From an uncultured archaeon (GTDB lineage Archaea > Iainarchaeota > Iainarchaeia > Iainarchaeales > DATDZZ01), in the NCBI GenBank assembly GCA_964373795.1, contig CAYJVY010000001.1:171341-188712 (forward strand): DNA of 17,372 nucleotides. The letters are read 5' to 3'. Each line of letters opens with the position of its first letter. Position 1 is the stretch's first letter. Below are positions 1 through 17,298 of this stretch, piece after piece. A program made the position numbers and the translations under genes. The notes below the pieces were generated by a model. The model searched no databases, was not told where the DNA came from, and saw only the letters and a list, made by a program, of their open reading frames with translations.

Positions 1-81
1 AAAGAAATATTGCAAAGAAATATTGCAAAGAATGTTGCAAAGAATATTGCAAAAAAAGTTTGCAAAAGAAACAAAAGAAAC
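1..81. repeat. Tandem direct repeat array: five 12-13 bp units AAAGAA(A)T(A/G)TTGC (1-63), then 2 x AAAAGAAAC (64-81); cut by the window edge
   Basis: Read directly: units at 1-13, 14-26, 27-38, 39-50 and 51-63. Each carries the 6-bp palindrome TTGCAA (10-15, 23-28, 35-40, 47-52, 60-65; spacing 13/12/12/13). AAAAGAAAC is duplicated at 64-72 and 73-81. Unit lengths are not multiples of 3, so this is not a peptide repeat. Confidence 0.85.
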
Positions 82-109
82 AAATGTTAAAATTGTTTTA
101 AAGATTTTT

Positions 110-463
110 ATGGATGCAGATTTATCTAAAGAGATTAGAAGAAGTGTTGATACTGGAAAAGTATTATTTGGAACTAGAAGCGTTGAAAAAATTCTTTTAA
201 AGGATTCAGCTAAACTAGTAATTTTTAGTTCAAACATTCCTTCATTTGAAAAAGAAAGATTAATGCATTTTTCAAATGTTTCTGGAACTCCTTTTCTTGA
301 CTTTGAAGGAAATGCTTTAGAACTTGGAAGGGTTTGCGGAAAACCATTTGTTGTAAGCACAATGATTGTAACAGATGTTGGAAAAAGCAAGATTTTAAGT
401 TCAATGAAAGAAAAGAAAAAAGTTGTCATAACAGCGGAAACTGGAAAGAAAAAATCTAAGTGA
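110..463 (+). CDS. rpl30e: 50S ribosomal protein L30e
   Basis: Motifs TGKVLFGTRSVEKILLKDSAKLVIFSSN and ELGRVCGKPFVVSTMIVTDVGKSKIL are typical of L30e. It sits directly upstream of nusA-rps12-rps7, as in archaeal operons. I start at ATG 110 (MDADLSKEIRR...). The tracked ORF from TTG 23 reads through the tandem repeat and would add an atypical 29-aa extension. The Lys-rich C-terminal tail is unusual. Confidence 0.85.
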   Translation: MDADLSKEIRRSVDTGKVLFGTRSVEKILLKDSAKLVIFSSNIPSFEKERLMHFSNVSGTPFLDFEGNALELGRVCGKPFVVSTMIVTDVGKSKILSSMKEKKKVVITAETGKKKSK

Positions 464-467
464 AAAT

Positions 468-884
468 ATGGATAGACTTACAAATCAAGAAATTCTTTAT
501 ATTAATGCATTGGATTCAATTGCAAAAGTAAGTGCAAAAAATTGTTTCATTGACGGAGATGACATTGTTTTTTTAGTAAAAGAAGAAGATGTTGGAGCAG
601 CAATTGGAAGAAATGGCCAAACAATTAAAAAAGTTCGAAACCAGTTGAAAAAAAATATTGAAATAATTCCTTTAACCTCTGATGCAACATCTTTTATTAA
701 AAAAAGTTTTATTAAAGTAAAAATTGAAGACATTCAAGAAGTAATAGTAAAGGAAAAAAAATACTTGAATGTAAAAGTTGATTCAGAGAACAGGTCACAG
801 ATTTTTCGGAACATGAAAAAGTTTAAAAGAGTTAAAGAAATACTTAAAAAAATCTATGGAGTAGAAAATATTAAAATAATTTGA
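468..884 (+). CDS. nusA: Archaeal NusA-like KH-domain transcription termination/antitermination protein
   Basis: 138 aa, the size of archaeal KH-only NusA. It has a GxxG KH motif ([15 protein letters not shown]) and the conserved position between rpl30e and rps12. Confidence 0.8.
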
Positions 885-891
885 TGATTTT

Positions 892-2844
892 ATGGCTACA
901 GGAGAATTTGCTGCAACCCAGCTTGAAAAAAAGAGAAAAAAGTGGAGATGGAAAGAAAAAGTATTCAAGAGACGAATGAAGGGCTGGAACATTAAATTTG
1001 ATTTACTTGAAGGATCTCCTCAAGGAAGAGGAATTGTAATAGAAAAAAGAGGAGTTGAAGCTAGACAGCCAAATTCCGGAATACGTAAATGTGTTTCACC
1101 AGATACAAAAGTAACTTTATTTGATGGATGTTATACCTCGATGAAAGATTTAAAAGGGGTTTGGGATCAAGCAACAGTTTCTTCCATGAGTTTGAATACT
1201 GGTTTTGTTGAACCATCAAAATTAGTTGATCATTTTTCTCTAGAAGAAAACGAAATTAAAAAATCTTATAAAATTAAAACAATGGAAACTGGAAGAGAAT
1301 TAATTGCTTCAAGTGACCATCCAATGTTTACTTTAAGAGGAAAAATTGATGTTAAAGACCTAAAAATTGGAGACAAAGTAATTGTATTTCCTTCAAATCC
1401 AATTGAATTAAAATTAGAAAACAAAACTGTTTTAACTGAAAAAGATTTAAGAAAAGTTTTTTTTAAAAATTCCCCTACTAAAAAAATTATTGAAGAGTTA
1501 AAAAGCAAGGAATTGCTTTCTTTAAAATTAAATAATTTGAAAACATCAAAACTTGCAAGACTTGTAGGACACTTGTTTGGCAATGGTTGTTTAAGTTATG
1601 GAAAAGCCGGAACTATATTTTCAGGAAAAATTGTGATATCTGGGAAGCAAGAAGAAATAAAAGAAGTTGAAAAAGATTTACAAGATTTAGGGTTTAAAGT
1701 TTCTCCTTTGCAAAAAATGTATAGAGAACGCATAATTGAAACATCTAATGGAAAAAGAAAAATTAAAGGAACAAGTTATAGTAAAAGTGTTTCATCTATT
1801 TCTTTATTTTATTTGTTTAAAGCTTTAGGAGTTCCAGTTGGAGACAAGGCTTCAACAGAGTACACAGTTCCTAAATGGATTAAAAAAGCTCCTTTATGGG
1901 TTAAAGAAGAGTTTTTGGCAGCTTATTTTGGAAGTGAGTTAGAAAAACCAAGATTAAAAAATAAAACTTTCCAAAACCTTGCATTAAATGTAAATAAAAC
2001 AGAAGACAAAGTTGGATCTGGAATTAAATTTTTAAATGATATAAAAATACTTTTGAAAAAATTTGGCGTTAAAGCTTCTGAACCTATTAAGAAATTTTGT
2101 TGTATTAGAAAAGATGGGACAAAAACCTATAGAACACAACTTTTCATTAAATCAAATCATACTAATTTATTGAATTTATTTGGAAAAATAGGTTACAAAT
2201 ATTCTCCTGAAAGAGCAATTCTAGCTAGACATGCATTTCAGTATTTAACAATTAGAAAACAAAAATTTGGTGAATATAAAAAAGCATTTGAAGAATTTAA
2301 GAAATTAAGAAGAGAAGGATTATCAATTTCAAAGATTGAAAAAGCTTTACATGTAAAAGGTTTTACGTTTATTAAAAAAGGTTTAATTAATTATTGGGTT
2401 TCAAGAGGAGTTAAAAATATTGATAAATTAGGCATAACTGTTGAAACAGAGTCCTTTAATGATTGGAGAAAAAATGCTTCTAAAAATCTTAAGGATGGTT
2501 TAGTTTGGGAAACAATTAATGAAATAAAAGAAGAACCAGTAAAGGAGTTAATGGATATAACTACTGAAAGCTCAAACCATAATTTTTTTGCTAATGGTTT
2601 TTTAACTGGGAACTGTGTTAGAGTTCAATTAATTAAAAACGGAAAACAATTAACTGCTTTAGCTCCATACGACGGAGCAATTAAATTCATTGACGAACAC
2701 GACGAAGTATTAGTTGAAGGTTTAGGAGGCGCGCAAGGTGGGCCAAAAGGAGATTTATGGGGCGTGAAATACAGAGTAACTCACGTAAACGGAATTGCTT
2801 TAGAAATGCTTAGAACAGGTAAAAAAGAAAAGAGTAAGAGGTAA
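892..2844 (+). CDS. rps12: 30S ribosomal protein S12 (uS12) precursor containing a 508-aa intein
   Basis: The N-extein ends ...[28 protein letters not shown]. The C-extein is [39 protein letters not shown]...[28 protein letters not shown]. Joined, they give a contiguous 142-aa archaeal/eukaryotic-type uS12. Confidence 0.92.
1090..2613 (+). mobile_element. Intein (Hint domain plus LAGLIDADG homing-endonuclease domain) inserted in rps12
   Basis: Starts with Cys codon TGT 1090-1092 ([13 protein letters not shown], block A). Block B is [11 protein letters not shown] (His codon 1318-1320). LAGLIDADG-like motif 1 is [14 protein letters not shown] (1552-1593) and motif 2 is [10 protein letters not shown] (1912-1941). 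Blocks F/G are [23 protein letters not shown], ending with Asn codon 2611-2613, followed by +1 Cys (TGT 2614-2616). Confidence 0.9.
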
Positions 2845-2858
2845 AAGAGGAATATTTA

Positions 2859-3476
2859 ATGACTGAAAAACAAGAAACAAAGGTTTTTGGAAAATGGACT
2901 TCAAGTGATGTAAAAATTAATGACATTAGTTTAGTTCATCATATTAGATTGGATTCCAAAAAAATTCCTCACACTTTTGGAAAGGTTACTAGGAAAAGAT
3001 TTGGAAAAGAAAACCTTTCATTAATTGAAAGATTAATAAACAAAGTAATGCGTTCAGGGCAAGGTAAAAGAAAGTTGAGCGGAAAATACATTCGTGGAAG
3101 AGGGGCTTGTGGAAAAAAACTTCAAGCAATGAGAATAGTTGAAAATGCGTTTGACAAAATTGAAAAACAAGCAAAGCAAAATCCTTTACAAGTATTAGTT
3201 CAAGCAATTGAAAACTCTGCTCCAAGAGAAGACGTTACAAGAATTCAAAGAGGAGGAATTGCTTATACTCAAGCAGTAGATATTTCTCCAATGAAAAGAG
3301 TTGATGAATCAATTAAAAACATTGCTTTAGCTGCTTTCTCTCAATCATTTAATAATAAAACAGATGCATCTGAAGCACTAGCAAAAGAAATTTTACTTGC
3401 CTCAAAAGAAGACGCAAATTCTTTTTCAGTTAAAAGAAGAAACGAAATTGAAAGAATTGCTGCAAGTTCAAGGTAA
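2859..3476 (+). CDS. rps7: 30S ribosomal protein S7 (uS7)
   Basis: Carries the motif ENSAPREDVTRIQRGGIAYTQAVDISPMKRVDESIKNIALAA, characteristic of archaeal uS7. An AAGAGG Shine-Dalgarno-like motif at 2845-2850 lies 8 nt upstream of the ATG. Conserved position after rps12. Confidence 0.92.
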   Translation: MTEKQETKVFGKWTSSDVKINDISLVHHIRLDSKKIPHTFGKVTRKRFGKENLSLIERLINKVMRSGQGKRKLSGKYIRGRGACGKKLQAMRIVENAFDKIEKQAKQNPLQVLVQAIENSAPREDVTRIQRGGIAYTQAVDISPMKRVDESIKNIALAAFSQSFNNKTDASEALAKEILLASKEDANSFSVKRRNEIERIAASSR

Positions 3477-3535: not shown

Positions 3536-3563
3536 ATTAATATTGTTTTGTAGTGACTTTGTA

Positions 3564-3848
3564 ATGGAAATTTTTTGGACAAGCCATGCACAACAGAGAT
3601 TTATTGAAAGAGCATTAATTTATGGTTTTTCAAAAGCAGATATTGATTACCTTGCTTTAAAACAATTGGTGAGAATTAATAAAGGTTTTGATGAAAAATA
3701 TAAGACAAAAAAATTTGAAACAATTGGTTTGGCTGGAAAAGTTTTCCTTACAATTCAAAAAGCAGAAGACTCTAAAAAAATAATAATTATTACTTTGTGG
3801 GAGTCAAATAAGAAAGAGGTTGAATTATGGCTATCAAAACAAAAATGA
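3564..3848 (+). CDS. Small DUF4258-like protein (putative toxin of a type II TA-like pair)
   Basis: The N-terminal FWTSHAQQRFIERAL (HAxxRxxxR) and the C-terminal beta-strand KKIIIITLWES match the pattern I associate with the DUF4258 family. Its stop TGA (3846-3848) overlaps the downstream gene. I start at ATG 3564; the tracked ORF begins at TTG 3543. Confidence 0.55.
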   Translation: MEIFWTSHAQQRFIERALIYGFSKADIDYLALKQLVRINKGFDEKYKTKKFETIGLAGKVFLTIQKAEDSKKIIIITLWESNKKEVELWLSKQK

Positions 3849-4165
3849 AGTGTCCTGTTTGTGGAGGAGAAGCTATTCTATCAAAACAGAATTTGAAACT
3901 TTTCAGGGGGGCAATATCTTTAAAAGATAACTATGTGTATGTTTGCAAAAACTGTAATGAAAAATTTGCAACAGGAGAAATGACTGGAAAAGCATTGAAT
4001 CAAGCAAAGCAGTATTTCAAGTTTAATAGAAAATTAATTTCTACTGGCGGGAGTATTGCAATAACTCTTCCATCGGATTTAAGTGACTATTACAAACTAA
4101 AAAAAGGCGAACAAGTCCAAATAATCCCTCAATCAAAAAAAGAAATGAAAATAGTTATTTTGTGA
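3827..4165 (+). CDS. YgiT/MqsA-type zinc-ribbon protein fused to an AbrB/SpoVT-like domain (putative antitoxin)
   Basis: MKCPVCGGEAILSKQNLKLFRG...YVYVCKNCNEKFATGEM is the CxxC...CxxC YgiT-type zinc finger pattern. The C-terminal GGSIAITLPSDLSDYYKLKKGEQVQIIP looks like an AbrB/SpoVT swapped-hairpin motif. GAGGT at 3816-3820 precedes ATG 3827. The alternative ATG 3845 forms an ATGA overlap with the upstream stop. Confidence 0.6.
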   Translation: MAIKTKMKCPVCGGEAILSKQNLKLFRGAISLKDNYVYVCKNCNEKFATGEMTGKALNQAKQYFKFNRKLISTGGSIAITLPSDLSDYYKLKKGEQVQIIPQSKKEMKIVIL

Positions 4166-4273: not shown

Positions 4274-6478
4274 GTGAAATATTTGGGTAAAAAGGAAGAA
4301 GTAGCGGCATTAGCGGAAAAATTAATGTATACTCAGGAAAGAATTAGAAACATTGGAATAGTTGCACACATTGATCATGGTAAGACAACACTTACAGATA
4401 ATTTAATTGCTGCTGCTGGTTTAATGTCTCAAGAGTTAGCTGGAAAACAACTTGTAACTGATTCAGAGGATCAAGAACAAGAAAGAGGAATTACAATTAA
4501 TGCTGCAAATGTTACAATTGTTTACAATTTGCATGGCAATGATTTTTTGATTAACATTATTGATACTCCTGGACATGTTGATTTTACTGGAGAAGTTATT
4601 AGAGCAATGAGAGCAGTTGACGGAGTAATTTTAGTTGTAGATGCAGTTGAAGGAGTAATGCCTCAAACTGAAACAGTTATTAGACAGGCTTTAAGGGAAC
4701 ACGTTAAACCAGTTTTATTCATTAACAAGGTTGACAGACTTGTAAATGAATTACAAATAAGTGAAGAAGAAATGCAGAAAAGATTTGTGAAAACAATTAC
4801 TCATGTAAATGAATTAATTAGTAAAAGTGCTCCAGAACAATTTAAAGAGAAATGGCTTGTAAATCCTGGAAATGGATCAGTTGTATTTGGATCTGCTTAC
4901 AATAACTGGGCTGTTTCAGTTCCTTTCATGAATAAAAGTGGAATTAAATTCAAACAAGTTTACGAGTTTTGTAAAAAAGAAGGCGGGCAAAAAGAGTTAT
5001 CCAAGAAAAGTCCTTTGCAAGAAGTTGTATTGCAAATGGTTGCAACTCATTTACCTAATCCTTTAGAGGCTCAGAGTTATAGAATTAAAAGAATTTGGCC
5101 TGGAGACAAGGAATCAGAGGTAGGAAAAGCAATGCTTTCGGCTTCTTCTAAAGAACCTTTTGCAATGATGGTTACAGATGTTTCAGTTGACGCTCATGCA
5201 GGAGATATTGCAACTGGAAGAGTTTATTCTGGAACAGTTAAAAAAGGTTTAAAGGTTAACTTGATTGGAGGAAAAAAAGAAGTAATAGTTCAAAAGGTTT
5301 GCTTGTTCATGGTTACAGATTTTGTTGAAGTAAAAGAAATTCCTGCAGGAAATATTGCTGCCTTAATTGGATTAAAAGAAGTTTATGCAGGTGAAACTCT
5401 TTCCTCAATTCAAATGGATGAATTTGAATCATTTTTATCAAATGTAGAGCCAGTAATAACTATTTCAGTTGAACCAAAGCAAACAAAGGATTTGCCTAAA
5501 TTAATTCAAGTAATAAAGCAAGTAACAAAAGAAGATCCAAATGTTAAAGCAACAATTAATCAAGAAACAGGTGAACACTTACTTTCAGGAATGGGAGAAC
5601 TTCACTTAGAAGTAATTCAATACAGAATTGAAAAACACCATAATGTTCCATTAAATGTTTCTCCTCCAATTGTTTTATTTCATGAAACAGTTAACAAAGA
5701 GTCTCCTACAATTGAAGGAAAATCTCCAAACAAACATAATAAATTCAAAATAAATGTTTCCCCAATTCCAAAAGAAGTTTTACTTAAATTAGTTGAATCA
5801 CATTTAGATCAAAAAATTAAACCCAAAGATAAGGTAATGATTGCAAAATTTGAAGAAATGGGTTTTGAAAAAGAAGACGCTAAAAGAGTTTGGGCAGTTC
5901 ACAATAACTGTGCATTATTTGATATGACTAGAGGAATTGAAGCCTTACACGAAGTAAGAGAATTAGTAATTCAAGGATTTCAAGATGCAACAGATCAAGG
6001 GCCTTTAGCTAAAGAAAAATGTTTTGGATTAAGAGTTGACTTAGAAGATGCTTCACTACATGAAGACGCAATTCATAGAGGCCCTTCACAAGTATTGCCT
6101 GCAATTACTAGAGCAATTTATGCTGCATTTCTTTCAGCCGATCCAGTTTTATTCGAACCAAAACAAACTCTTACAATTACTGTTCCAGATGATTACATGG
6201 GAGCTGTTTCAAAAGAGCTTGGCTCTAGGAGAACTCAAATTCAAGAAATGAGGCAAGAAGGAGATTCAACTATTTTTATTGCAAAAGCTCCAGTAAAAGA
6301 ATTAATTGGGTTTTCAGCTGATATGAGAGGAGCAACTCAGGGAAGAGCTGTTTGGACAGCAGAATATGCAGGATATGAATTACTTCCAAGAGAATTACAA
6401 ACCCCTGTAATGAGAGAAATTCGTTCCAGAAAAGGAATGGATCCAGAACCAAAATCTGCAAGCTTTTTCATGGATTAA
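4274..6478 (+). CDS. fusA: Translation elongation factor 2 (aEF-2)
   Basis: G motifs AHIDHGKTT, DTPGH and NKVD. The diphthamide-site motif HEDAIHRGPSQ is intact (His codon 6074-6076). There is no ATG start. The candidates are GTG 4274 (tracked) or TTG 4283, which gives MGKKEE... and lies 5 nt after an AGGTGA Shine-Dalgarno-like motif (4272-4277). Confidence 0.95.
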   Translation: MKYLGKKEEVAALAEKLMYTQERIRNIGIVAHIDHGKTTLTDNLIAAAGLMSQELAGKQLVTDSEDQEQERGITINAANVTIVYNLHGNDFLINIIDTPGHVDFTGEVIRAMRAVDGVILVVDAVEGVMPQTETVIRQALREHVKPVLFINKVDRLVNELQISEEEMQKRFVKTITHVNELISKSAPEQFKEKWLVNPGNGSVVFGSAYNNWAVSVPFMNKSGIKFKQVYEFCKKEGGQKELSKKSPLQEVVLQMVATHLPNPLEAQSYRIKRIWPGDKESEVGKAMLSASSKEPFAMMVTDVSVDAHAGDIATGRVYSGTVKKGLKVNLIGGKKEVIVQKVCLFMVTDFVEVKEIPAGNIAALIGLKEVYAGETLSSIQMDEFESFLSNVEPVITISVEPKQTKDLPKLIQVIKQVTKEDPNVKATINQETGEHLLSGMGELHLEVIQYRIEKHHNVPLNVSPPIVLFHETVNKESPTIEGKSPNKHNKFKINVSPIPKEVLLKLVESHLDQKIKPKDKVMIAKFEEMGFEKEDAKRVWAVHNNCALFDMTRGIEALHEVRELVIQGFQDATDQGPLAKEKCFGLRVDLEDASLHEDAIHRGPSQVLPAITRAIYAAFLSADPVLFEPKQTLTITVPDDYMGAVSKELGSRRTQIQEMRQEGDSTIFIAKAPVKELIGFSADMRGATQGRAVWTAEYAGYELLPRELQTPVMREIRSRKGMDPEPKSASFFMD

Positions 6479-6636: not shown

Positions 6637-7386
6637 CTATATTGCAATTATTTCTATTGGGTTTCCTCTGTCCCAAAAATCTCCAACAGGATTTAGATAT
6701 TCTTTTTCTGTTGCACTTACAAATTCTGTTTTTGGAATTCTTCTCCAAGAAATTTTAGTAAAACCTGCTTTTGTTAAATAATCAATAGTTGATTTTGTTG
6801 ATGAGCCCCATTCAACTACTCTTAGAACTCCGTTTTTCAAAAGCTTTCTTTCTCTCATTCTTCTCAGATCTTTTACAAGCTGTTCTTCTGCTTGTCTTCC
6901 AGCAGTTTTTATTAATGCTCTTTCAAAGTCACCCACAGTTGCCCCGGTATTTCTCAAGTGTTGCACTGCTTTGTCCCTTTTTTTCAGACTTCTACGAATT
7001 TCTTTTTCTATTTCTTCTACTAATTCTTCAAGGTAATTATGAATAAATATTCCTGCATTTATGAAACCAAATTTTCTTGGATCTTTAAGCCAAGCTTTAA
7101 AACCAGTGTAAGATAAATGCGCTCCAGGAATTTCTCTCCTATTTAAATCAGGGTGTTCTACTCCATGAATTCTTGCTCTTGGATTTAATTCCCCTGCATG
7201 TTTTATCCATTCTCCGCTAGCAAAACCCAAATCAACTATTCTATTTTGACTAGAAATAGCTTGTCTTACAAATGCTGCAGTATGCCTTTTAGGCAAATGC
7301 AATTTCCTTGGTTGTCTTGCATGCATTAAATAGTTGTGTTTTCCAGAATTTAAATCTCTTAGCTTTTTTCTTTTCCAAAAACACAA
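6637..7386 (-). CDS. Hypothetical protein, possibly Rossmann-fold methyltransferase-like
   Basis: IVDLGFASGEWIKH resembles SAM-binding motif I of FtsJ/RrmJ-like methyltransferases (VVDLGAAPGGW). I could not identify the K-D-K-E catalytic residues. The tracked start is TTG (7386); an ATG alternative at 7326 gives MHARQPRK.... Opposite strand to the translation operon. Confidence 0.3.
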   Translation of the reverse strand: MCFWKRKKLRDLNSGKHNYLMHARQPRKLHLPKRHTAAFVRQAISSQNRIVDLGFASGEWIKHAGELNPRARIHGVEHPDLNRREIPGAHLSYTGFKAWLKDPRKFGFINAGIFIHNYLEELVEEIEKEIRRSLKKRDKAVQHLRNTGATVGDFERALIKTAGRQAEEQLVKDLRRMRERKLLKNGVLRVVEWGSSTKSTIDYLTKAGFTKISWRRIPKTEFVSATEKEYLNPVGDFWDRGNPIEIIAI

Positions 7387-7428: not shown

Positions 7429-7671
7429 ATGCCTAATCTTACTCTTTCAATAACTGAGGAAACTAAAAAAATGATGGATAAGCACCCAGAAATTAGTTGG
7501 TCTAATGTAGTGCGTGTTATAATTGAACAGAAGCTCCGCGATTTTGAAGAAGCGGAAAGGCTTGCTTCCAAAAGCAAAATAACCGAAAAAGAATTTGAAA
7601 AGTTTATTTCAAAGGTGAATAAAGAAACAGCATTGCATGCGAAGAGGCTTCTTAATGAAAGTCACAGTTGA
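7429..7671 (+). CDS. Small antitoxin-like protein (possible ribbon-helix-helix, VapB-like)
   Basis: 80 aa. The N-terminal LSITEETKKMMDKHPEISWSNVVRVIIEQKL fits a strand-helix-helix pattern. It overlaps the downstream PIN gene by 17 nt. Confidence 0.5.
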   Translation: MPNLTLSITEETKKMMDKHPEISWSNVVRVIIEQKLRDFEEAERLASKSKITEKEFEKFISKVNKETALHAKRLLNESHS

Positions 7672-8065
7672 TGCAAATATTCTCTTTTCTGCTGTCTTGA
7701 AGCCTGGTTCTACACGAAGAATTTGGTTTAATCTTGATTTTAAATTATATGCTCCAACTTTTATTCTTACAGAATTCAAAAAGCACAGGCAATATCTATT
7801 CGAAAAAAGCAGGTTAAGTGAAGAGGAGTTTACAAATGTTGCAGGGAAAATTTTTTCCCAAACACATTTTATGGAAGATAATGAGCTGACTCCTTTTGTG
7901 CCTGCAGCAGCATCGCTTTTACAGGATCCCTTAGATTGGCTCTATCTTGCATGTGCGTTAAAAGAGGACACAGTAATCTGGAGCAATGATTTGGGATTCA
8001 AAAAACAAAATCGAATAAAGGTTTACTCAACAGAAGAAATGTTAAAAGAATTTGGTTTGCTTTAA
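7655..8065 (+). CDS. PIN-domain protein (VapC-like putative toxin ribonuclease)
   Basis: MKVTVDANILFSAVL... carries the first PIN acidic residue. Further acidic positions lie in LTEFKKH, DPLDWLYLACAL and VIWSNDLGF, the usual four-acidic PIN layout. I start at ATG 7655; the tracked ORF starts at 7637. Confidence 0.7.
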   Translation: MKVTVDANILFSAVLKPGSTRRIWFNLDFKLYAPTFILTEFKKHRQYLFEKSRLSEEEFTNVAGKIFSQTHFMEDNELTPFVPAAASLLQDPLDWLYLACALKEDTVIWSNDLGFKKQNRIKVYSTEEMLKEFGLL

Positions 8066-10163: not shown

Positions 10164-10811
10164 ATGTTTCCTATACTTAATCTGAAAATTGAAAATCCTT
10201 TCATTAAATCTGCTTTACTTGGATTGATTGCAGGAATTCTTTTAGAATTTTTTTTAATTCTTTTCTCTGTATTAATTTCATTTGTATTTTTCAGTTTTTT
10301 TGGAGCAACTTCTTTCAATAGTTCTTCAAGTCTTTTTCTTATAGCTTTTTATATTATTAGTACTTTTTTAGTTATTTTTATTAGATTCTTTTTTGCTTTT
10401 TTAGTTGGCTTTGCTTCTTCTTATTTTTTGAAATCTTTTCCTCAATTGAAAAGAATTTTATTTGCAGGAATTGCAGGAATAACTAATGCAGTTGGAGCCT
10501 TTATTCTTGACATTATATTAATTATCATAGGTCTCTTGCTTTTTTTTATTATTTCAGCGTTTTCATCTTTTAGTAGTGGTGGAATGGGTTTACAGTTATT
10601 TTTTATGCAAGCTTTTTTATCATTATTAGGATTAGTATTTTACTTTTTTTTATTATTAATTTCTTTAATGATTGGAATTTTTTTAGGAGCATTACTTGGT
10701 TCTTTAGGAGGACTTGTTTCAATAATTGTTTTTCCTTCCCAGCTTAAAGAAACAGCTTCAAATATTTCTGTTAAAAGCTTTGTTGTAGAAAGATCTTTAA
10801 AGAAAAAGTGA
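10164..10811 (+). CDS. Polytopic membrane protein (about 5-6 TM segments), function unknown
   Basis: 215 aa, extremely rich in Phe/Leu/Ile/Ser, with repeated hydrophobic segments. It lies directly upstream of the alpha-2-macroglobulin-like gene on the same strand. Its stop TGA (10809-10811) overlaps GTG 10808 of the long ORF. Confidence 0.55.
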   Translation: MFPILNLKIENPFIKSALLGLIAGILLEFFLILFSVLISFVFFSFFGATSFNSSSSLFLIAFYIISTFLVIFIRFFFAFLVGFASSYFLKSFPQLKRILFAGIAGITNAVGAFILDIILIIIGLLLFFIISAFSSFSSGGMGLQLFFMQAFLSLLGLVFYFFLLLISLMIGIFLGALLGSLGGLVSIIVFPSQLKETASNISVKSFVVERSLKKK

Positions 10812-10842
10812 TTAGGTTTTTTCCTAATCATTCCTTAAGGTA

Positions 10843-10850
10843 TTTAAATA
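10843..10850 (+). promoter_or_regulatory. TATA-like TTTAAATA about 24 nt upstream of ATG 10871 (possible leaderless promoter for the A2M-like gene)
   Basis: TTTAAATA at 10843-10850 and ATG at 10871. The spacing fits an archaeal TATA box to a transcription start at or near the start codon. TATA-like strings are frequent in AT-rich DNA, so support is weak. Confidence 0.25.
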
Positions 10851-10870
10851 CTTTAATTCCTATTTATTGC

Positions 10871-13800
10871 ATGAAGTTTGCAAAACTAGTCATGCTTTTC
10901 TTCTTGTTTTCTTTTTTTTCTTCATTTGTTTCAGCTAATGGCATTTCTAACAGTAGTTATTTTTATTTGCAAATTGATTCCTCTGTTTTACCTGGCAAAC
11001 CAATTGATTTATCTTTTTGCGGAAATGCAAAGCTTGCAAGGCTTGAAATATTTAAATTAAATCCTTTAGATGCTCCTTTAGAAAAATATTTAGATAAATT
11101 AGAGGTTGAAGCACTTTTATTAAAATCTGAAAAAATTCGTTCACTTGATTTGCTTATTCAAGGAACAGATTATTGTAAAAAACAAGTACTTGAACCATTA
11201 ACTTCTGGATATTATTATTTCAAAGCATTTGAAGTAGGAATTCCAGTAGTTGATAGCTTGCTTGCAGAATATAATTTTGTTAATGTTTCATCCCTTGGAT
11301 TTATAGCAAAGCAATCTGATTCTAAAACTGCTTTTTATGTTTTTGACTTGGTTTCAGGAAAACCTTTACAAGGAGCTGAAGTTTTTTCTTTTAAAGAAGC
11401 ATTTAAGGATGCGAAATCAATTGGTTTAACTAACGAGCTTGGCTTGCTTGAAATTGATAAGGGAGAAGAAATTCAAAACGTTTTAGCTTCCTTGCAAGGA
11501 AATAATGCTTTTACTCGAACTTATTATTATGCTAGTTCTTATGATAAATTCCAAGTTTATTCTTTTACTGATCGCCCTATTTACAGGCCAAACCAAAAAG
11601 TTTTCTTTAAATCCATTGCATGGCAGAACTTGAATGGATTGAAATCTTTTTACTCTAATTCTTCAATTCAAGTTGAAATTTCTGATTCAAAAGGAAATTC
11701 TGTTTTCAAACAGTCTTTTACTTCAAATGAATTTGGAGCTATTTCAGGAGAATTTGTTTTAGGTGACGAGCCTTCTTTAGGAAATTATTCTTTAAATGTT
11801 TTAATTAACGATCAAGCTTTTTATTCTCAAGGATTTGAAGTTCAAGAATACCGAAAACCCGAATACAAGGTTTCCTTAACTCCTAGTAAAAAGCAATTTC
11901 TTAAAGGAGACAAAATTGAATTAAAGGTTTTAACTGAATACTTTTTTGGAAGCCCTGTTCCAAATGCAGATTTAGTTTTTGAAGTGCAAAAAGATTCTTC
12001 TTATTTTTCTCCTTGTTGGGGTTATTATAAATGTTTTTATGCTGAAGAATTTATTTTGCCTCCAAGGTATTTTAGAGGACAAACAGTTTTTTCAGGGCAA
12101 TTAAAAACTGATTTACAAGGAGAAGCAATTGTTTCCTTTGATTCAAATTCTTTAGAGGAAACAGATGTTACTTATACTGTAACAGTTAAAGCATTTGATG
12201 AATCTAGGAGAGAGGCAAGCGCTTCAACTCAAGTAAAAGTTAATTCGGCTTTATTCAAATTACTTGGTTTAACAAATAAATATTCTTATTCAGTTGGAGA
12301 AGAAATTAAGGTAAAAATTAAATCAATTGATAACGATAATTCTCCAGTTAATGCAAAAATTGATGTAAATGTTTCTAGAGGAGAATGGGATGCAAATTAC
12401 TCTGTTTACACAATTGAATCAATTAAATTTGACTCAGTTGAATCAAAAGAAGGAGTAGCAGATTATTCTTTCACTGTTTCTAAAGGAGGAAGTTATTCAA
12501 TTGAGTTAACCTCTAAAGATGAAAAAGGAAATCCAGTGAAATATAAATTAAATGTTTATGTTTATGAAGCTGGAAGATTTTTTGATAAATTTGATTCTTT
12601 AGAGATTTCATTGGATAAAGATGCGTATTCTCAAAACGATGTAGCTGTTTTAACAATTAATTCTCCTGTAAAAGAGTTTGTTGCATTAGTTTCAATTGAA
12701 GGAAAAAAATTATTTTATTTAAAGCCAACTTATTCTGAAACTAATTCAAAGCAATTGCATTTACAGTTAACTCCTGAAATGACTTTAAATGCATTTGTAA
12801 ATGTTTCAATTGTTAAAGACAATAAAATGTATTCAGCTGTAAAAAGAATTTTAATTCCCCCTGCAAATAAAAACTTGAATGTAGAAATTACTCCTCAAAA
12901 AGATTTTTTTAACCCCAGAGAAAAAGTTCAATTCAGAGTTAAATTAACTGATGAAGAAGGCAAACCAGTTAAAGGAGAGCTTTCACTTGGATTAGTTGAT
13001 GAATCAATTTATTCATTGAAAGAAGATTCAAGTGAAGACATTTTTAAATTCTTTTACTCTCCTGAAAGAAATTCTGTTTACACTAGTTCTTCTGTTCAAG
13101 CATTTTATTATCCAAGAGGAATAGAAGGTGAAATAATGACTGAATCAGGAATGCCTTTATTGGGTATTGCAGCTCCCAGAATGGAGAAAAGTGTTGACAG
13201 TGTTAGAAGAGAGTTTGCTGCTACAGAAATTAGAAATATTTTTGCTGACACTGCTTTTTGGAATTCATCAGTTAAAACAAATGCTGAAGGAGAAGCATTA
13301 GTTGAAGTTGACTTGCCTGATAATTTGACTACTTGGAGGGCAACAGTTAAAGCACTTGGAACTGAAATGCAGGTAGGACAAAACACTGATAAAATTGTTT
13401 CAAGAAAAAAAGTTATTGCTCGTTTAATTACTCCTCGCTTTTTAGTGCAAGGAGATGAATTAATTATTTCAGGAATTGTTCACAATTTCTTGCCTGAACA
13501 ACAAGAATTTTTAGTTCAATTAGATTCAAATGATTTAGAATTCCTTTCATCTAATGAAAAACTTGTTTCAATTGCTTCAAATGCTTCTCAAAGAATTGAT
13601 TTCACTGTAAAAGCTTCAAAGTGTTGTTCTGCAAAGCTTGCTTTAAAATCTCTTGGCTTAATTGAATCAGATGCAATGGAGTTAACTCTTCCAGTATTGC
13701 CTCATGGAGTAAAGCAAACAAAATATTTTTCAGGCGAACTTAAAGGAAATGAATTAGTTCAAGAAATTTTATTCCCTGAAAAAACAATTGCAGGAGCTGA

Positions 13801-15796
13801 TTCAGTTTTGATTTCCTTAAATCCATCTATTGCTGCTTCAATGCTTGATTCTTTAGATTATTTAACTGGTTATCCTTATGGATGTGTAGAGCAAACAATG
13901 TCAAAGTTTTTGCCAAACTTAATAGTTGATCAAGCTTTAAAGAAATTAAATTTATCCAAACCTGAGTTGCAAAAAGATTTGCCTGACCAAGTAAGTAAGG
14001 GATTGCAAAGATTGTATGACTTTCAGCATGGAGATGGCGGTTGGGGTTGGTGGAAAGATGATCAAACAAATAATTACATGACTGCATATGTTGTATATGG
14101 TTTGAGTCTTGCAGAACAATCAGGTTTTAATGTTGATAAAAGCGTTTTGCAGAGAGGAGTAAATAAATTAGAGCAATTGTTTGCAGAAGAAACAAATCAA
14201 AACATTAAGGCATTCATGTCTTATGCTCTTTCACTGCAAGGAATTAATAGATTTGAAGGAATTAAAAAAGAAGAGCTTTCCTCTTATGGAAAAGCTGTTT
14301 ATGCTTTAGCTTTATGGAATGAAAAATCTCCAGAGGCAACTAATAAGCCTGCTGAAAGAAAACAATTAGCTCAAGACTTAGTGAAAGAACTTGATTTGAA
14401 TGGTTCTTGTACTTCACTTGAATGTTCTTGGACTGGGGAAGGCTGGAGACAACATTATTCTTCAAACGATGTTGAAGCAACAGCCTATGTATTAAAAGCA
14501 TTAATTGCAATTAATCCTTTATCTGAAAACATTCCTAAAACAATTAATTTTTTAGTTAGAAACAAAAAAGGAGGAAGATGGGTTTCCACTTCAGATACAG
14601 CTGCAGCTATTTTTGCTTTAACTGATTACTTAGTTTTAACTCAAGAACTAAAGCCAAATTATTCTCTTCAAGTTTCATTTAACAATGATTTGCTTTCCTC
14701 TAATCAAATTAATTCAAGCAATGTTTTAAACAAGTTTGAGTTTTCTCCAAAAGTTCTTCAAAAAAATAATTCAATTAAGGTTTCAAAGCAAGGCCAAGGA
14801 AAATTATATTATGCAATTACTCAGCAATTCTTTGAATTAAAGGATTTAATTGAAGCAGAATCAAATGGAATTAAAATTACTCGTTCAATGCCTTTAGAAA
14901 TTGATTTAGGACAAGAGTTTGATGTAAACCTTTTAGTTGAATTAAATGCAGATTATGAGTACTTGATTTTAGAAGACTTTCTTCCAGCAGGAGTAGAATT
15001 AGTTGATGAAAAAAAATCAGATGACTATTATTATTGGGATTATAAAAGGTTTGAAAGAAGAGATGAAAAAGTTGTATTCTTTTTTTCTTGGCTTGGAAAA
15101 GGACAACATAGTTTTTCTTACAGAGTTAGAGCAGAAGTTCCAGGAACATTTAAAGTACTGCCAACTCAGTCTTCTTTAATGTATGCTCCAGAAATAAATG
15201 GAAGATCTTCTGAAAACACTTTAAAAATAACTGAAAATTATAGATTGTTTATTCCAAAAATAGATGTTAATGCACAAGAAATAATAATTATTTTAGATGA
15301 AGAAACTCTTTCGGGAGAAAAAATTAATGGATCAATTGATTTAATTGTTTCAGATTCAAACGGAGTAACATTGTCTTCCAAATCAATTGATTTAAATCTT
15401 TCTCAGCCAAGAAAATCCGAGCAAACAAGTATTTCTTTAAATAAAAAATTAAGTGAAGGACAATACACTGTTTCATTAAAGGCTTATACAGATAAAGGAA
15501 ACTTTGCTTCGACAAAGGCCTTCCAATTAGGAAGAATTACAGTAGTTGAAGAAATTCCTGAAACCATTACTAGTTTAAGTAAGGAAAAAATTGTTTTCGA
15601 TAAATCAAGTGTTCCATTTAAACCTGATTCAACTGTAATTCCTTCTGCAAAAATTACTCCAATTCCTGATAAACCTAAAACTCCTGGAATTGATTTATTT
15701 AAAATTATAGGAGGAGCATTAATTATTCTTTCACTAATTGCAATAATTTACATTGTTTTTCTACGCAAAGGAGCTCAAATTGAAGCAGAAGACTAA
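10871..15796 (+). CDS. Alpha-2-macroglobulin family protein with an intact thioester motif, signal peptide and C-terminal membrane anchor
   Basis: Signal-peptide-like MKFAKLVMLFFLFSFFSSFVSA (10871-10936). MG-domain motifs are DRPIYRPNQKVFFKS and VQEYRKPEYKVSL. The A2M-domain motif is FADTAFWNSSVKTNAEGEALVEVDLPDNLTTWRATVKA. The thioester motif is GYPYGCVEQTMSKFLP (CVEQ = 13883-13894). The thioester-domain helices include DFQHGDGGWGWW and GGRWVSTSDTAAAIFALTDY. The C-terminal TM segment is IIGGALIILSLIAIIYIVFL (15704-15763), followed by RKG. I start at ATG 10871 rather than the tracked GTG 10808. Confidence 0.88.
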   Translation: MKFAKLVMLFFLFSFFSSFVSANGISNSSYFYLQIDSSVLPGKPIDLSFCGNAKLARLEIFKLNPLDAPLEKYLDKLEVEALLLKSEKIRSLDLLIQGTDYCKKQVLEPLTSGYYYFKAFEVGIPVVDSLLAEYNFVNVSSLGFIAKQSDSKTAFYVFDLVSGKPLQGAEVFSFKEAFKDAKSIGLTNELGLLEIDKGEEIQNVLASLQGNNAFTRTYYYASSYDKFQVYSFTDRPIYRPNQKVFFKSIAWQNLNGLKSFYSNSSIQVEISDSKGNSVFKQSFTSNEFGAISGEFVLGDEPSLGNYSLNVLINDQAFYSQGFEVQEYRKPEYKVSLTPSKKQFLKGDKIELKVLTEYFFGSPVPNADLVFEVQKDSSYFSPCWGYYKCFYAEEFILPPRYFRGQTVFSGQLKTDLQGEAIVSFDSNSLEETDVTYTVTVKAFDESRREASASTQVKVNSALFKLLGLTNKYSYSVGEEIKVKIKSIDNDNSPVNAKIDVNVSRGEWDANYSVYTIESIKFDSVESKEGVADYSFTVSKGGSYSIELTSKDEKGNPVKYKLNVYVYEAGRFFDKFDSLEISLDKDAYSQNDVAVLTINSPVKEFVALVSIEGKKLFYLKPTYSETNSKQLHLQLTPEMTLNAFVNVSIVKDNKMYSAVKRILIPPANKNLNVEITPQKDFFNPREKVQFRVKLTDEEGKPVKGELSLGLVDESIYSLKEDSSEDIFKFFYSPERNSVYTSSSVQAFYYPRGIEGEIMTESGMPLLGIAAPRMEKSVDSVRREFAATEIRNIFADTAFWNSSVKTNAEGEALVEVDLPDNLTTWRATVKALGTEMQVGQNTDKIVSRKKVIARLITPRFLVQGDELIISGIVHNFLPEQQEFLVQLDSNDLEFLSSNEKLVSIASNASQRIDFTVKASKCCSAKLALKSLGLIESDAMELTLPVLPHGVKQTKYFSGELKGNELVQEILFPEKTIAGADSVLISLNPSIAASMLDSLDYLTGYPYGCVEQTMSKFLPNLIVDQALKKLNLSKPELQKDLPDQVSKGLQRLYDFQHGDGGWGWWKDDQTNNYMTAYVVYGLSLAEQSGFNVDKSVLQRGVNKLEQLFAEETNQNIKAFMSYALSLQGINRFEGIKKEELSSYGKAVYALALWNEKSPEATNKPAERKQLAQDLVKELDLNGSCTSLECSWTGEGWRQHYSSNDVEATAYVLKALIAINPLSENIPKTINFLVRNKKGGRWVSTSDTAAAIFALTDYLVLTQELKPNYSLQVSFNNDLLSSNQINSSNVLNKFEFSPKVLQKNNSIKVSKQGQGKLYYAITQQFFELKDLIEAESNGIKITRSMPLEIDLGQEFDVNLLVELNADYEYLILEDFLPAGVELVDEKKSDDYYYWDYKRFERRDEKVVFFFSWLGKGQHSFSYRVRAEVPGTFKVLPTQSSLMYAPEINGRSSENTLKITENYRLFIPKIDVNAQEIIIILDEETLSGEKINGSIDLIVSDSNGVTLSSKSIDLNLSQPRKSEQTSISLNKKLSEGQYTVSLKAYTDKGNFASTKAFQLGRITVVEEIPETITSLSKEKIVFDKSSVPFKPDSTVIPSAKITPIPDKPKTPGIDLFKIIGGALIILSLIAIIYIVFLRKGAQIEAED

Positions 15797-15835: not shown

Positions 15836-16273
15836 ATGCCTTTCAAGTTTTTAGAGGAAGTTGCTTTAGCAGACATTGCTTTTAAAGCAACTGGAAAGGA
15901 TTTAATTGAATTACTTGAATCTAGTGCTTTAGCTGTTTTCACTGTAATGGTTGACTTGAAAACAGTTAAACCAAAAATTGAGAAAACTTTCACAGTTAAC
16001 TTACAAGCAGATAATTTTGAAAAACTTTTATTTGATTTTTTATCAGAAATTGTTTTCTTGAAGGACACTGAAGGAATGGTTTTTAAGGAAATAAAAGTTA
16101 AATGGTTTCCAGCAAAACGCGGAGCAATAGTTAAAGCAATTTTAAAAGGAGATTTAGTTAACCCTAAAACTCAAATTCTTGGACAAGACGTGAAAGCAGT
16201 TACAATGCATAATTTTAAAGTCGAGAAAACTTCTTTAAAAAAATGGAAAGCATTTGTAATCCTGGATATTTAG
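15836..16273 (+). CDS. Archease (RtcB tRNA-splicing ligase cofactor family)
   Basis: 145 aa. The N-terminal FKFLEEVALADIAFKATGKDLIELLESSALAVFTVM and the C-terminal VKAVTMHNFKVEK...WKAFVILDI match the conserved archease termini. Confidence 0.8.
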   Translation: MPFKFLEEVALADIAFKATGKDLIELLESSALAVFTVMVDLKTVKPKIEKTFTVNLQADNFEKLLFDFLSEIVFLKDTEGMVFKEIKVKWFPAKRGAIVKAILKGDLVNPKTQILGQDVKAVTMHNFKVEKTSLKKWKAFVILDI

Positions 16274-17298
16274 TTTTTTATTTTCTCTAATTTTTGTTGT
16301 CTTGCTTTTTCTCTGAAACCAATTGCTTCTCTAAACCTTGGAATTCCTTTAGGCCAAATCCTAATAACTATATTAGGAATTCCACTACTTCTTTCTTTTC
16401 CAATTGAATGTTCAACTCCTGCTTCACTCAAATAAAGTGATACGTGTTTCACTAACTCTGGATTTGTTGAAGGCAGTTCTATACACGTAGTTTTTTTTGG
16501 CCCTGAAAAGTGTATTACTCCATGTGAATCAAATAATCCTTTCAAGAAATCAATTCTGTTTTTTTGAGTTGAAAGAATTTTTACAGGAATTCTAGTTAAA
16601 TACTCTGTTTCTCTGTTTAAAATTTGAGTTAAATTTCTTGCAATAAACGCATGTGTTTCAAGTCCTTTTGTTTCAACAAATTTCACTTCTTTTCCTGCAA
16701 TATTTGCTAATCTTGTTCTAAATTCTTTTCCAAAACCTTTATCTTTTGCTGCAAGATTTAATCCCATGTTACCAACAACTTTTTTTTGTTGAGGACTTCT
16801 TCTAGTTTCTTGTCCAAACATTGCTCCAATAATATATGCATAATCTGCTTCTTTTTCTGGAGTGAACTCAATTTTTTTTCTCATTCTTTCATATGAATCT
16901 GCTCTTTTAAGTGAAACATTTTTTGGAAGCCTTTCATGAAAAAGCCATAAACGAACAGAGGTTTTCTCCACTCCAAATCGTTTTGCAATATGAGTTAAAT
17001 TAGGAGTTTGTCCTAATTCAATATATTGATTGTATGCTTCAACTACTTGTTTAAGGGTTTCAAATTCTTTTAATTGTTGTTCTAGTTTTCTACGCATTTC
17101 TTCTGGTTTTACTCCAAGCCAAGAAAATCTTTCAAGTAATCTTTCCCTTGCTTCAACTAGTGAAACTCTTTGCCCTGAAGGCAAAAAAATAATTGATTCT
17201 TTTCTATCTTTTGATGGAAGCAAGGCTTCAAGGTATGAAATTCTTTTCTTCCAAATAGTATTTCTTGTATTAGCTGGCTTTTTTCTTGCTCTAATCAT
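16270..17298 (-). CDS. Free-standing HTH + double-motif LAGLIDADG (homing-endonuclease-like) protein
   Basis: HTH-like LTHIAKRFGVEKTSVRLWL (about 16945-17001). LAGLIDADG-like motif 1 is YAYIIGAMFGQE (16807-16842) and motif 2 is DFLKGLFDSHG (16519-16551), about 97 aa apart as in single-chain enzymes. The C-terminal IRIWPKGIPRFREAIGFREKARQQKL is typical of the fold. There are no Hint/intein blocks and no flanking extein. The 3' end overlaps the archease 3' end by 4 nt (convergent). Confidence 0.65.
   Translation of the reverse strand: MIRARKKPANTRNTIWKKRISYLEALLPSKDRKESIIFLPSGQRVSLVEARERLLERFSWLGVKPEEMRRKLEQQLKEFETLKQVVEAYNQYIELGQTPNLTHIAKRFGVEKTSVRLWLFHERLPKNVSLKRADSYERMRKKIEFTPEKEADYAYIIGAMFGQETRRSPQQKKVVGNMGLNLAAKDKGFGKEFRTRLANIAGKEVKFVETKGLETHAFIARNLTQILNRETEYLTRIPVKILSTQKNRIDFLKGLFDSHGVIHFSGPKKTTCIELPSTNPELVKHVSLYLSEAGVEHSIGKERSSGIPNIVIRIWPKGIPRFREAIGFREKARQQKLEKIKN

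Follow-up and report, generated by a model that had tools for sequence, protein, structure and literature searches.

Inteins are found overwhelmingly in proteins of replication, repair and nucleotide metabolism. In the accessible text of the main intein survey (Novikova et al., PMC4760082), core translation components contain few inteins and no ribosomal protein stands among the prominent hosts. The closest precedents for the locus described here are database entries: proteins of Caldivirga and Vulcanisaeta carry the RefSeq name 'intein-containing 30S ribosomal protein S12', and with a complete genome deposited in 2007 the uS12 intein is already known as a database object. Here we analyse a stretch of 17,372 nucleotides from an uncultured archaeon of the Iainarchaeota (contig CAYJVY010000001.1 of assembly GCA_964373795.1, positions 171,341 to 188,712; 'the window' hereafter), in which the gene for ribosomal protein uS12 is interrupted by a 508-residue insert. 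From its conserved residues, the best overall explanation, and one that we consider very probable, is that the insert is a class-1 LAGLIDADG intein that would excise itself from the uS12 precursor and that, as a homing element, is probably past its mobile phase.

The initial annotation of this DNA, made from its letters, had suspected that uS12 was a novel intein host. That suspicion did not survive comparison with public data, where the same intein is already present at the same site for dozens of archaea. A full-text literature search retrieved no paper on an intein in uS12, S12 or RPS23, which is not proof of absence from the literature. The particulars of the copy in the window, namely a D231N substitution in its endonuclease and a family-wide lack of the penultimate histidine, are mildly interesting in their own right.

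The open reading frame at 892..2844 on the forward strand encodes a precursor of 650 codons, in which uS12 flanks of 66 and 76 residues surround the insert. The intein starts at Cys67 (tgt, 1090-1092), directly after uS12 residues 1-66, and ends in ...FLTGN, with its last codon (aac) at 2611-2613, followed by Cys575 (tgt, 2614-2616). The bounds of 1090-2613 given in the initial annotation are exact to the base, and all the motifs quoted there are found in the translation. A Pfam scan returns Ribosom_S12_S23 in two pieces with Intein_splicing between them, and positions 35-110 of PF00164 match residues 574-650. When the flanks are joined in silico, the 142-residue product matches the TIGR00982 uS12_E_A model over positions 1-139 of 139 (198.5 bits, cut-off 140.2) and NF003254 with 210.9 bits (cut-off 196), far above chance. 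The spliced protein is 87% identical to the closest intein-free allele (P0103/L002), with no gap across the insertion point, and the fused exteins align with the DNA of that allele without gaps at 78% nucleotide identity. These matches bear out the earlier proposal that the joined flanks form an end-to-end uS12. Further, profile A1 matches the archaeal uS12 chains in solved ribosome structures (~1e-68), from about residue 71-73 to the end of the chain, and the exteins in an AF2 model of the precursor match archaeal uS12 by Foldseek. Cys575, the +1 nucleophile, is native to uS12: it belongs to the RKC motif of archaea and eukaryotes, and intein-free alleles have it too.

The hexanucleotide TGTGTT, encoding Cys-Val, opens both the intein (1090-1095) and the C-extein (2614-2619), so the insertion boundary is ambiguous by 6 bp at the DNA level. 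The repeat is probably incidental, as block A typically has an aliphatic residue after its cysteine.

To describe the anatomy of the insert residue by residue, 67 full-length precursors of the uS12 intein were aligned from public data, and counts and invariance given below refer to this set. The insertion point, K66/C67 at the upstream junction and N574/C575 at the downstream one (the slash marking the splice site), is identical in 67/67, and the extein residues P60 and K66 are invariant. The N-terminal half of the splicing domain keeps C67, T72, D142, H143 and P144 in every sequence, with Ser or Thr at position 140 in all of them; the block B [S/T]xxH motif is thus S140-S-D-H143 in the window. 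The C-terminal part is equally strict, with D555, T557, H563, N564, F565, A567, N568 and N574 invariant, as is C575. Three intein profiles score above their curated cut-offs: PF14890 with 46.7 bits (cut-off 35.8), TIGR01445 with 29.5 (24.5) and TIGR01443 with 19.6 (15.6). The strongest single profile match is NF038162, RtcB_rel_intein ('intein-containing RtcB family protein'), which reaches 301 bits over its intein part.

The predicted structure points the same way. The AF2 model, built on 23 homologues, has a mean pLDDT of 84, with values above 90 in most of the intein. Its best Foldseek matches in the PDB are TliVMA (7qss, 7e-18) and PI-PfuI (1dq3, 8e-16), with PI-TkoII (2cw7) and PI-SceI also matched. 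Mini-inteins superpose at 1.4-2.3 Å root-mean-square deviation over ~100 residues (for instance, 1mi8 at 1.4 Å over 100 columns and 4o1r at 1.6 Å). Profile A2, made from nine family members, matches the Ssp DnaB mini-intein (2.4e-8) and the endonuclease region of TliVMA (2e-6) among solved inteins. A single-sequence search of the PDB with the intein returned a marginal mini-intein match only (6qaz, E-value 1.5e-3) and no close solved homologue. Judged by its full residue set (C1, [S/T]xxH, Asp/His, terminal Asn and +1 Cys), the insert is a genuine class-1 intein. The earlier proposal of such an element at the RK/C site, beside the PNSxxRK loop of uS12, is upheld by the profile scores, the predicted fold, the invariant residues and the gapless match to intein-free alleles.

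Position 573, just before the terminal asparagine, is Gly in 38 sequences, Ser in 22, Lys in 6 and Leu in 1, and never His (0/67), and the sister inteins in RtcB, RpoA' and RpoB likewise have no penultimate histidine. This histidine is common but dispensable in known splicing inteins and does not define the class. Chen, Benner and Perler reportedly found in 2000 that two Methanocaldococcus jannaschii inteins, those of RNA polymerase A' (ending in Gly-Asn) and PEP synthase (Phe-Asn), splice without it. Because position 573 is never His and the sister inteins are alike, the uS12 intein family as a whole presumably splices without the block-G histidine.

On this reading, the gene would be translated as a 650-residue precursor in which an N-S acyl shift at Cys67 is followed by trans-thioesterification to Cys575, cyclisation of Asn574 and a final S-N shift. 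These steps would join the 66- and 76-residue exteins into a normal 142-residue uS12 able to enter the 30S subunit. The insertion lies between Lys66 and the +1 Cys, five residues after the PNS decoding-loop motif. By alignment, we take it to correspond to K50/V51 of Escherichia coli S12, between the streptomycin-resistance and accuracy residue K42 and R53, and presumably just past P44-N45-S46, the loop in contact with the decoding centre. An insert of 58 kDa at such a site should be incompatible with assembly. Because uS12 is essential, the splicing residues would remain under selection. The protein is also normally encoded by a single-copy gene and, because this copy occupies the canonical operon slot, ribosome assembly would pass through splicing. 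The initial annotation had proposed that every 30S subunit in this organism depends on protein splicing, and with the gene in its canonical L30e-NusA-S12-S7 operon that proposal is a sound one.

Indeed, the conserved neighbourhood L30e-NusA-S12-S7-EF-2 is present in the window, with the operon segment at 23..3476. The same gene order surrounds the closest intein-free allele (L002, L003), which in L002 sits in an RpoA-L30e-NusA-S12-S7-EF-2 operon, and recurs in an independent Logan assembly of run ERR3478686. There, a 3,542-bp contig (L001) carries L30e-NusA-S12(intein)-S7 with an identical protein and both junctions. The intein has a G+C content of 24-30%, equal to that of the surrounding genome, and the conserved exteins are slightly richer, at 36%. 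Because its composition matches its surroundings, the intein is not a recent foreign arrival.

Some variation of this operon among relatives is worth recording. The EF-2 gene of the relative with the intein-free uS12 (L002, 4064-6429) itself carries an intein with a LAGLIDADG_3 domain, in a product of 1,256 residues, and EF-2 in the window (4274-6478, 734 residues) has none. Related DPANN genomes have inteins in different genes of the ribosomal operon. In close relatives, uS7 and EF-2 are separated by a spacer of just 21 bp; at this place the window has two small overlapping open reading frames on the forward strand (3543-4165; 101 and 112 residues). The first has no Pfam match and resembles a small toxin, and the second combines a zinc ribbon with an AbrB/SpoVT-like C terminus; together they may represent a toxin-antitoxin pair that has inserted into this operon. 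The interval from EF-2 to EF-1alpha is also broken, by a PIN_2 protein (7637-8065) and an unannotated 249-residue open reading frame on the reverse strand (6637-7386).

Within the intein, predicted helices 217-230 and 335-349 carry two LAGLIDADG motifs, and the endonuclease part of the model matches I-SceI, I-DmoI, the bI3 maturase and I-AniI by Foldseek (E-values of ~1e-6 to 4e-5). The residue before the final Gly of such a motif is a metal-binding acidic residue. In motif 2 it is present (Glu349, conserved in 66/67) but it is missing from motif 1, where the window reads GHLFGNG and 64/67 homologues read GHLFGDG; one of the two catalytic residues is therefore lost. Position 231 is Asp in 64/67 and Asn in 3/67, the window included. 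In studied LAGLIDADG enzymes such as I-CreI (D20N) and PI-SceI (D218), replacing the corresponding Asp by Asn abolishes cleavage or reduces it severely. The endonuclease is probably impaired because the metal-binding Asp of motif 1 is replaced, and by analogy with these enzymes we think it likely that this allele no longer makes double-strand breaks.

The opposite possibility, that the endonuclease is still active and the element still mobile in its population despite Asn231, is the best of the alternatives, although we regard it as rather unlikely. The domain has its full length and is free of frameshifts and deletions, and both Glu349 and the remainder of motif 1 are intact. A single active site could still nick DNA, and nicks can stimulate gene conversion. 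Yet Asp is kept at position 231 by nearly the whole family, the same exchange is so damaging in I-CreI and PI-SceI, and the two other Asn alleles have decayed further, one by an additional E349K substitution (P0054) and the other with a motif 1 that reads GNA (P0041). Endonuclease decay at this site has gone further in 449-residue inteins, found in Caldivirga sp. genomes (L014, L022) and in P0068, in which motif 1 reads GRLLSSG and motif 2 YLGGAL and all splicing residues are kept. The helical module that follows the endonuclease domain is largely deleted in these shortened Caldivirga sp. alleles and shows some of the lowest conservation in the family (34%). It is possibly an extra DNA-binding element, judging from its helix-turn-helix-like stretch, and no profile match backs such a role.

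Across the family at large, the endonuclease domain is as conserved as the N-terminal splicing half (mean pairwise identity of 46% versus 41%), as would be expected if homing activity were under selection in the family as a whole. A separate protein of the window touches on the same theme. At 16270-17298 on the reverse strand, a free-standing protein of 342 residues has a LAGLIDADG_3 domain (E-value 1.4e-5, residues 250-308), and a stretch near its N terminus resembles a helix-turn-helix. The protein has motifs that seem degenerate (IIGAMFGQE and LKGLFDSHG), and it could be a free-standing or domesticated relative of homing endonucleases. Its gene lies tail to tail with an archease gene (15836-16273), with a four-base overlap.

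How the element is distributed bears on why it is there. Among ~5,000 uS12 clusters retrieved, ~74 clusters (at 90% identity) combine uS12 with the same intein. Their carriers include, within DPANN, Diapherotrites/Iainarchaeum, Micrarchaeota, Aenigmarchaeota, Woesearchaeota and Nanoarchaeota, and beyond it Thaumarchaeota/Nitrososphaeria, Bathyarchaeota and the cultured Thermoproteales Caldivirga maquilingensis and Vulcanisaeta souniana. At the DNA level, at least 40 GTDB species genomes match a pattern spanning the C-terminal junction, and wherever the locus is not cut off the junction is followed by a uS12 C-extein of 76-77 residues. These 40 loci are probably a lower bound, as the proteins of Caldivirga maquilingensis and Vulcanisaeta fit the pattern and both are unlisted. 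A search with the spliced protein returned 5,095 uS12 clusters, of which the best 120 are all uninterrupted, at ~142 residues and up to 87% identity, many of them labelled Candidatus Diapherotrites/Iainarchaeum. Alleles of rps12 with and without an insert at RK/C, which the initial annotation had thought worth looking for, thus both exist.

Extein and intein distances are correlated (Spearman 0.45, a value reached in 0/500 permutations), and the same proteins come out nearest to the window whether they are ranked by extein (80-85% identity) or by intein (52-57%). In none of the allele pairs is the intein clearly closer than the exteins. Recent horizontal transfer was considered and set aside on this basis, as there is no signal of jumps across lineages. 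Judging from these sequence distances, the element is evidently a long-term resident of its lineages. It behaves like a selfish homing element: its site in uS12 is the same in several archaeal phyla, only a small share of lineages carry it, and the closest relatives do not. The pattern of presence and absence fits the classical homing cycle, in which an element invades, becomes fixed, suffers decay of its endonuclease and is lost, and does not fit a one-off event. In the window genome, the element has probably passed its mobile phase, and double-strand cleavage of empty alleles is likely to have been lost.

The family extends beyond uS12. At an E-value of 1e-30 or lower, 145 representatives of a broader intein family are found in RtcB, RpoA', RpoB, radical-SAM enzymes, an eRF1-family protein and other hosts, and the uS12 inteins score highest within it as a group. 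One member lies on the same 188,712-bp contig, outside the window: the RpoB protein P0078 carries an intein of this family with 36% identity, an intact GHLFGDG and a GN/C ending. A second type of insertion in uS12 was also observed. In a metagenome-assembled genome of Woesearchaeota (L029; CAZPBI010000047.1, minus strand around 1034-1084 and upstream) and in P0228, two inteins lie five residues apart. The additional one is a mini-intein of ~160 residues (CFDSETELL...KIMISHN/S) between the Asn and Ser of PNS, upstream of the RK/C intein. It scores 23.8 bits on TIGR01445 (cut-off 24.5) and is very rare, a dedicated search having found two fragments only. The PN/S mini-intein of these rare Woesearchaeota-type alleles may be new.

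A regulatory role had been put forward in the initial annotation, in which splicing acts as a checkpoint on ribosome biogenesis. In one version of this idea, the intein would be kept because its splicing answers to redox state, temperature or another signal and so controls how much mature uS12 is available for 30S assembly. In its favour, the insertion site is constant and the element has lasted in several phyla, its distances track those of its exteins, and the unspliced precursor should be unusable, with the insertion in a critical, buried loop. Conditional protein splicing is established for archaeal and bacterial inteins such as those of RadA, MoaA and DnaB, and a second cysteine (C80, in 'FDGC') lies near Cys1 in the DPANN subgroup. 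However, no extra cysteine or sensor feature is conserved across the family, the conserved endonuclease points to selection for homing, and homing endonucleases normally target just such conserved, functional sites. Moreover, because the closest relatives do without the intein and few clusters have it, the pattern is that of a selfish element rather than of an adopted regulator. We therefore find the checkpoint unsupported and consider it improbable. We rate just as low the broader idea that the uS12 decoding loop is a recurrent, long-lived intein hotspot of archaea, with two independent insertion points five residues apart (PN/S and RK/C), at which the rate of splicing may have been co-opted in some lineages as a post-translational throttle on 30S biogenesis, possibly sensitive to redox or temperature.

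It is more doubtful still, and in our view very improbable, that the interrupted gene is a dead insertion or pseudogene while a second copy of uS12 elsewhere serves the ribosome. The view is limited to 17 kb of a metagenome-assembled genome, and the missing penultimate histidine could be read as a sign of inactivity. Against this, the 650-codon frame is intact in an AT-rich genome, the splicing residues are all invariant, related alleles that bear the intein match its exteins at up to 85% identity, the spliced product is as close to intein-free uS12 as described above, the gene is in its canonical operon position, and complete genomes of cultured archaea have the same architecture. A chimeric assembly, in which a uS12 gene was fused to the intein of another gene or organism, might be feared of any metagenome and was one of the refutations foreseen in the initial annotation. 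It is rejected with near certainty, as both junctions are in frame and codon-exact, those at 1090 and 2613 are reproduced in the independent assembly, in the 67 full-length homologues and in at least 40 genomes, and no break in composition is seen beyond the usual higher G+C of conserved exteins.

The reading of a self-excising class-1 intein, past its mobile phase, has caveats of its own, however. Self-splicing by the class-1 pathway is deduced from conserved residues. The block-G histidine is missing here (Gly573) as in the rest of the family, although the cultured carriers must make ribosomes. The analysis covered the 17-kb window, and a second uS12 gene could lie elsewhere in the genome. 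As for the endonuclease, the Pfam profile LAGLIDADG_3 (PF14528) stays below threshold on residues 267-443 (12.4 bits, E-value 0.19, cut-off 22.5), and the assignment consequently rests on the motifs and the predicted fold. Of the LAGLIDADG endonuclease claimed in the initial annotation, the two motifs and the fold stand, whereas the Pfam profile falls short and motif 1 has Asn231. Finally, the effect of Asn231 is carried over from other LAGLIDADG enzymes, and the rest of the domain is intact and as conserved as the splicing domain.

The coordinates of the features discussed are collected in Table 1.

Table 1. Features of the interrupted uS12 gene and its operon neighbours in the window.
Feature	Position	Strand	Details
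L30e	23-463	+	Pfam
NusA-like KH protein	468-884	+	Pfam
uS12 N-extein	892..1089	+	Residues 1-66, ending in the decoding-loop motif QPNSGIRK; matched by PF00164, TIGR00982 and NF003254
Intein	1090..2613	+	508 aa, residues 67-574; split HINT splicing domain, LAGLIDADG endonuclease domain and helical module
HINT N-terminal half	1090..1401	+	Block A 1090-1128 (Cys67); block B IASSDHPMF 1303-1329 (S140, H143); beta strands 73-165 in the model
LAGLIDADG-type homing endonuclease domain	1534..2211	+	Approximately residues 215-440
LAGLIDADG motif 1	1555-1587	+	Residues 222-232 (LVGHLFGNG 224-232); catalytic Asp replaced by Asn231 (aat 1582-1584)
LAGLIDADG motif 2	1912-1941	+	Residues 341-350; Glu349
Helical module	2212..2478	+	Approximately residues 441-529; helix-turn-helix-like stretch (...INYWVS); helices 439-474, 479-488, 496-505 and 522-529 in the model
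Splicing domain, C-terminal part	2479..2613	+	Blocks F/G 2548-2613: D555, H563, terminal Asn574; penultimate Gly573
uS12 C-extein	2614..2844	+	Residues 575-650 plus stop codon; starts with the +1 nucleophile Cys575
uS7	2859-3476	+	Pfam

An antisense open reading frame within the intein (1266-1583) is treated as a chance frame in AT-rich DNA, and Rfam and tRNA scans of the window found no RNA genes. Elsewhere in the window, at 10808-15796 on the forward strand, lies the gene for an alpha-2-macroglobulin-like protein of 1,662 residues with MG2, A2M, bait-region, TED and bMG10 domains. Its N-terminal region is signal-like, and it has a membrane anchor at the C terminus. It is an unusually large protease inhibitor of bacterial type for a small-genome DPANN archaeon.

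A widely distributed intein that lies within a few residues of the PNS decoding loop, in the ribosomal protein most critical for accuracy, is a useful and apparently undiscussed case. In carriers, among them the cultivable Caldivirga and Vulcanisaeta, ribosome production would pass through a protein-splicing step. The alleles also offer a natural decay series for the homing cycle, from an intact endonuclease through a single active-site substitution to a partly deleted domain, and the uS12 family would provide a set of inteins that splice without the penultimate histidine.

Compared with known systems, the locus is closest to the S12 proteins of Caldivirga maquilingensis (WP_012185390.1 / ABW01170.1, UniProt A8MB80) and Vulcanisaeta souniana (WP_188602501.1), with which it shares the host protein, the RK/C site and the intein family. 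They belong to the same length class (661 residues) and have the same GN/C ending and LAGLIDADG motifs, at 44-45% identity overall. They differ in motif 1 (GHLFGDG), which retains the catalytic Asp that is Asn in the window, and their hosts are hyperthermophilic Thermoproteales, whereas the host of the window is a low-G+C DPANN archaeon (Iainarchaeota/Diapherotrites-like). One step further away, the sister inteins in RtcB (NF038162), RpoA', RpoB and radical-SAM proteins belong to the same family, with 30-44% identity over the full intein. They share the CV.P.T start, the HNF.AN...[GS]N/C end and the GDG/GSE motifs but differ in host protein and insertion site.

The M. jannaschii RNA polymerase A' intein combines a Gly-Asn end with an otherwise standard class-1 set, as in the window, in a different host. 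The structurally characterized TliVMA (7qss), PI-PfuI (1dq3), PI-TkoII (2cw7) and PI-SceI (1lws) are alike in pairing a split HINT domain with a two-motif LAGLIDADG endonuclease (Foldseek E-values of 7e-18 to 2e-7). They have only 9-18% sequence identity to the intein of the window, which has an extra helical module at residues 441-529, and they end in His-Asn where the uS12 intein described here ends in Gly-Asn.

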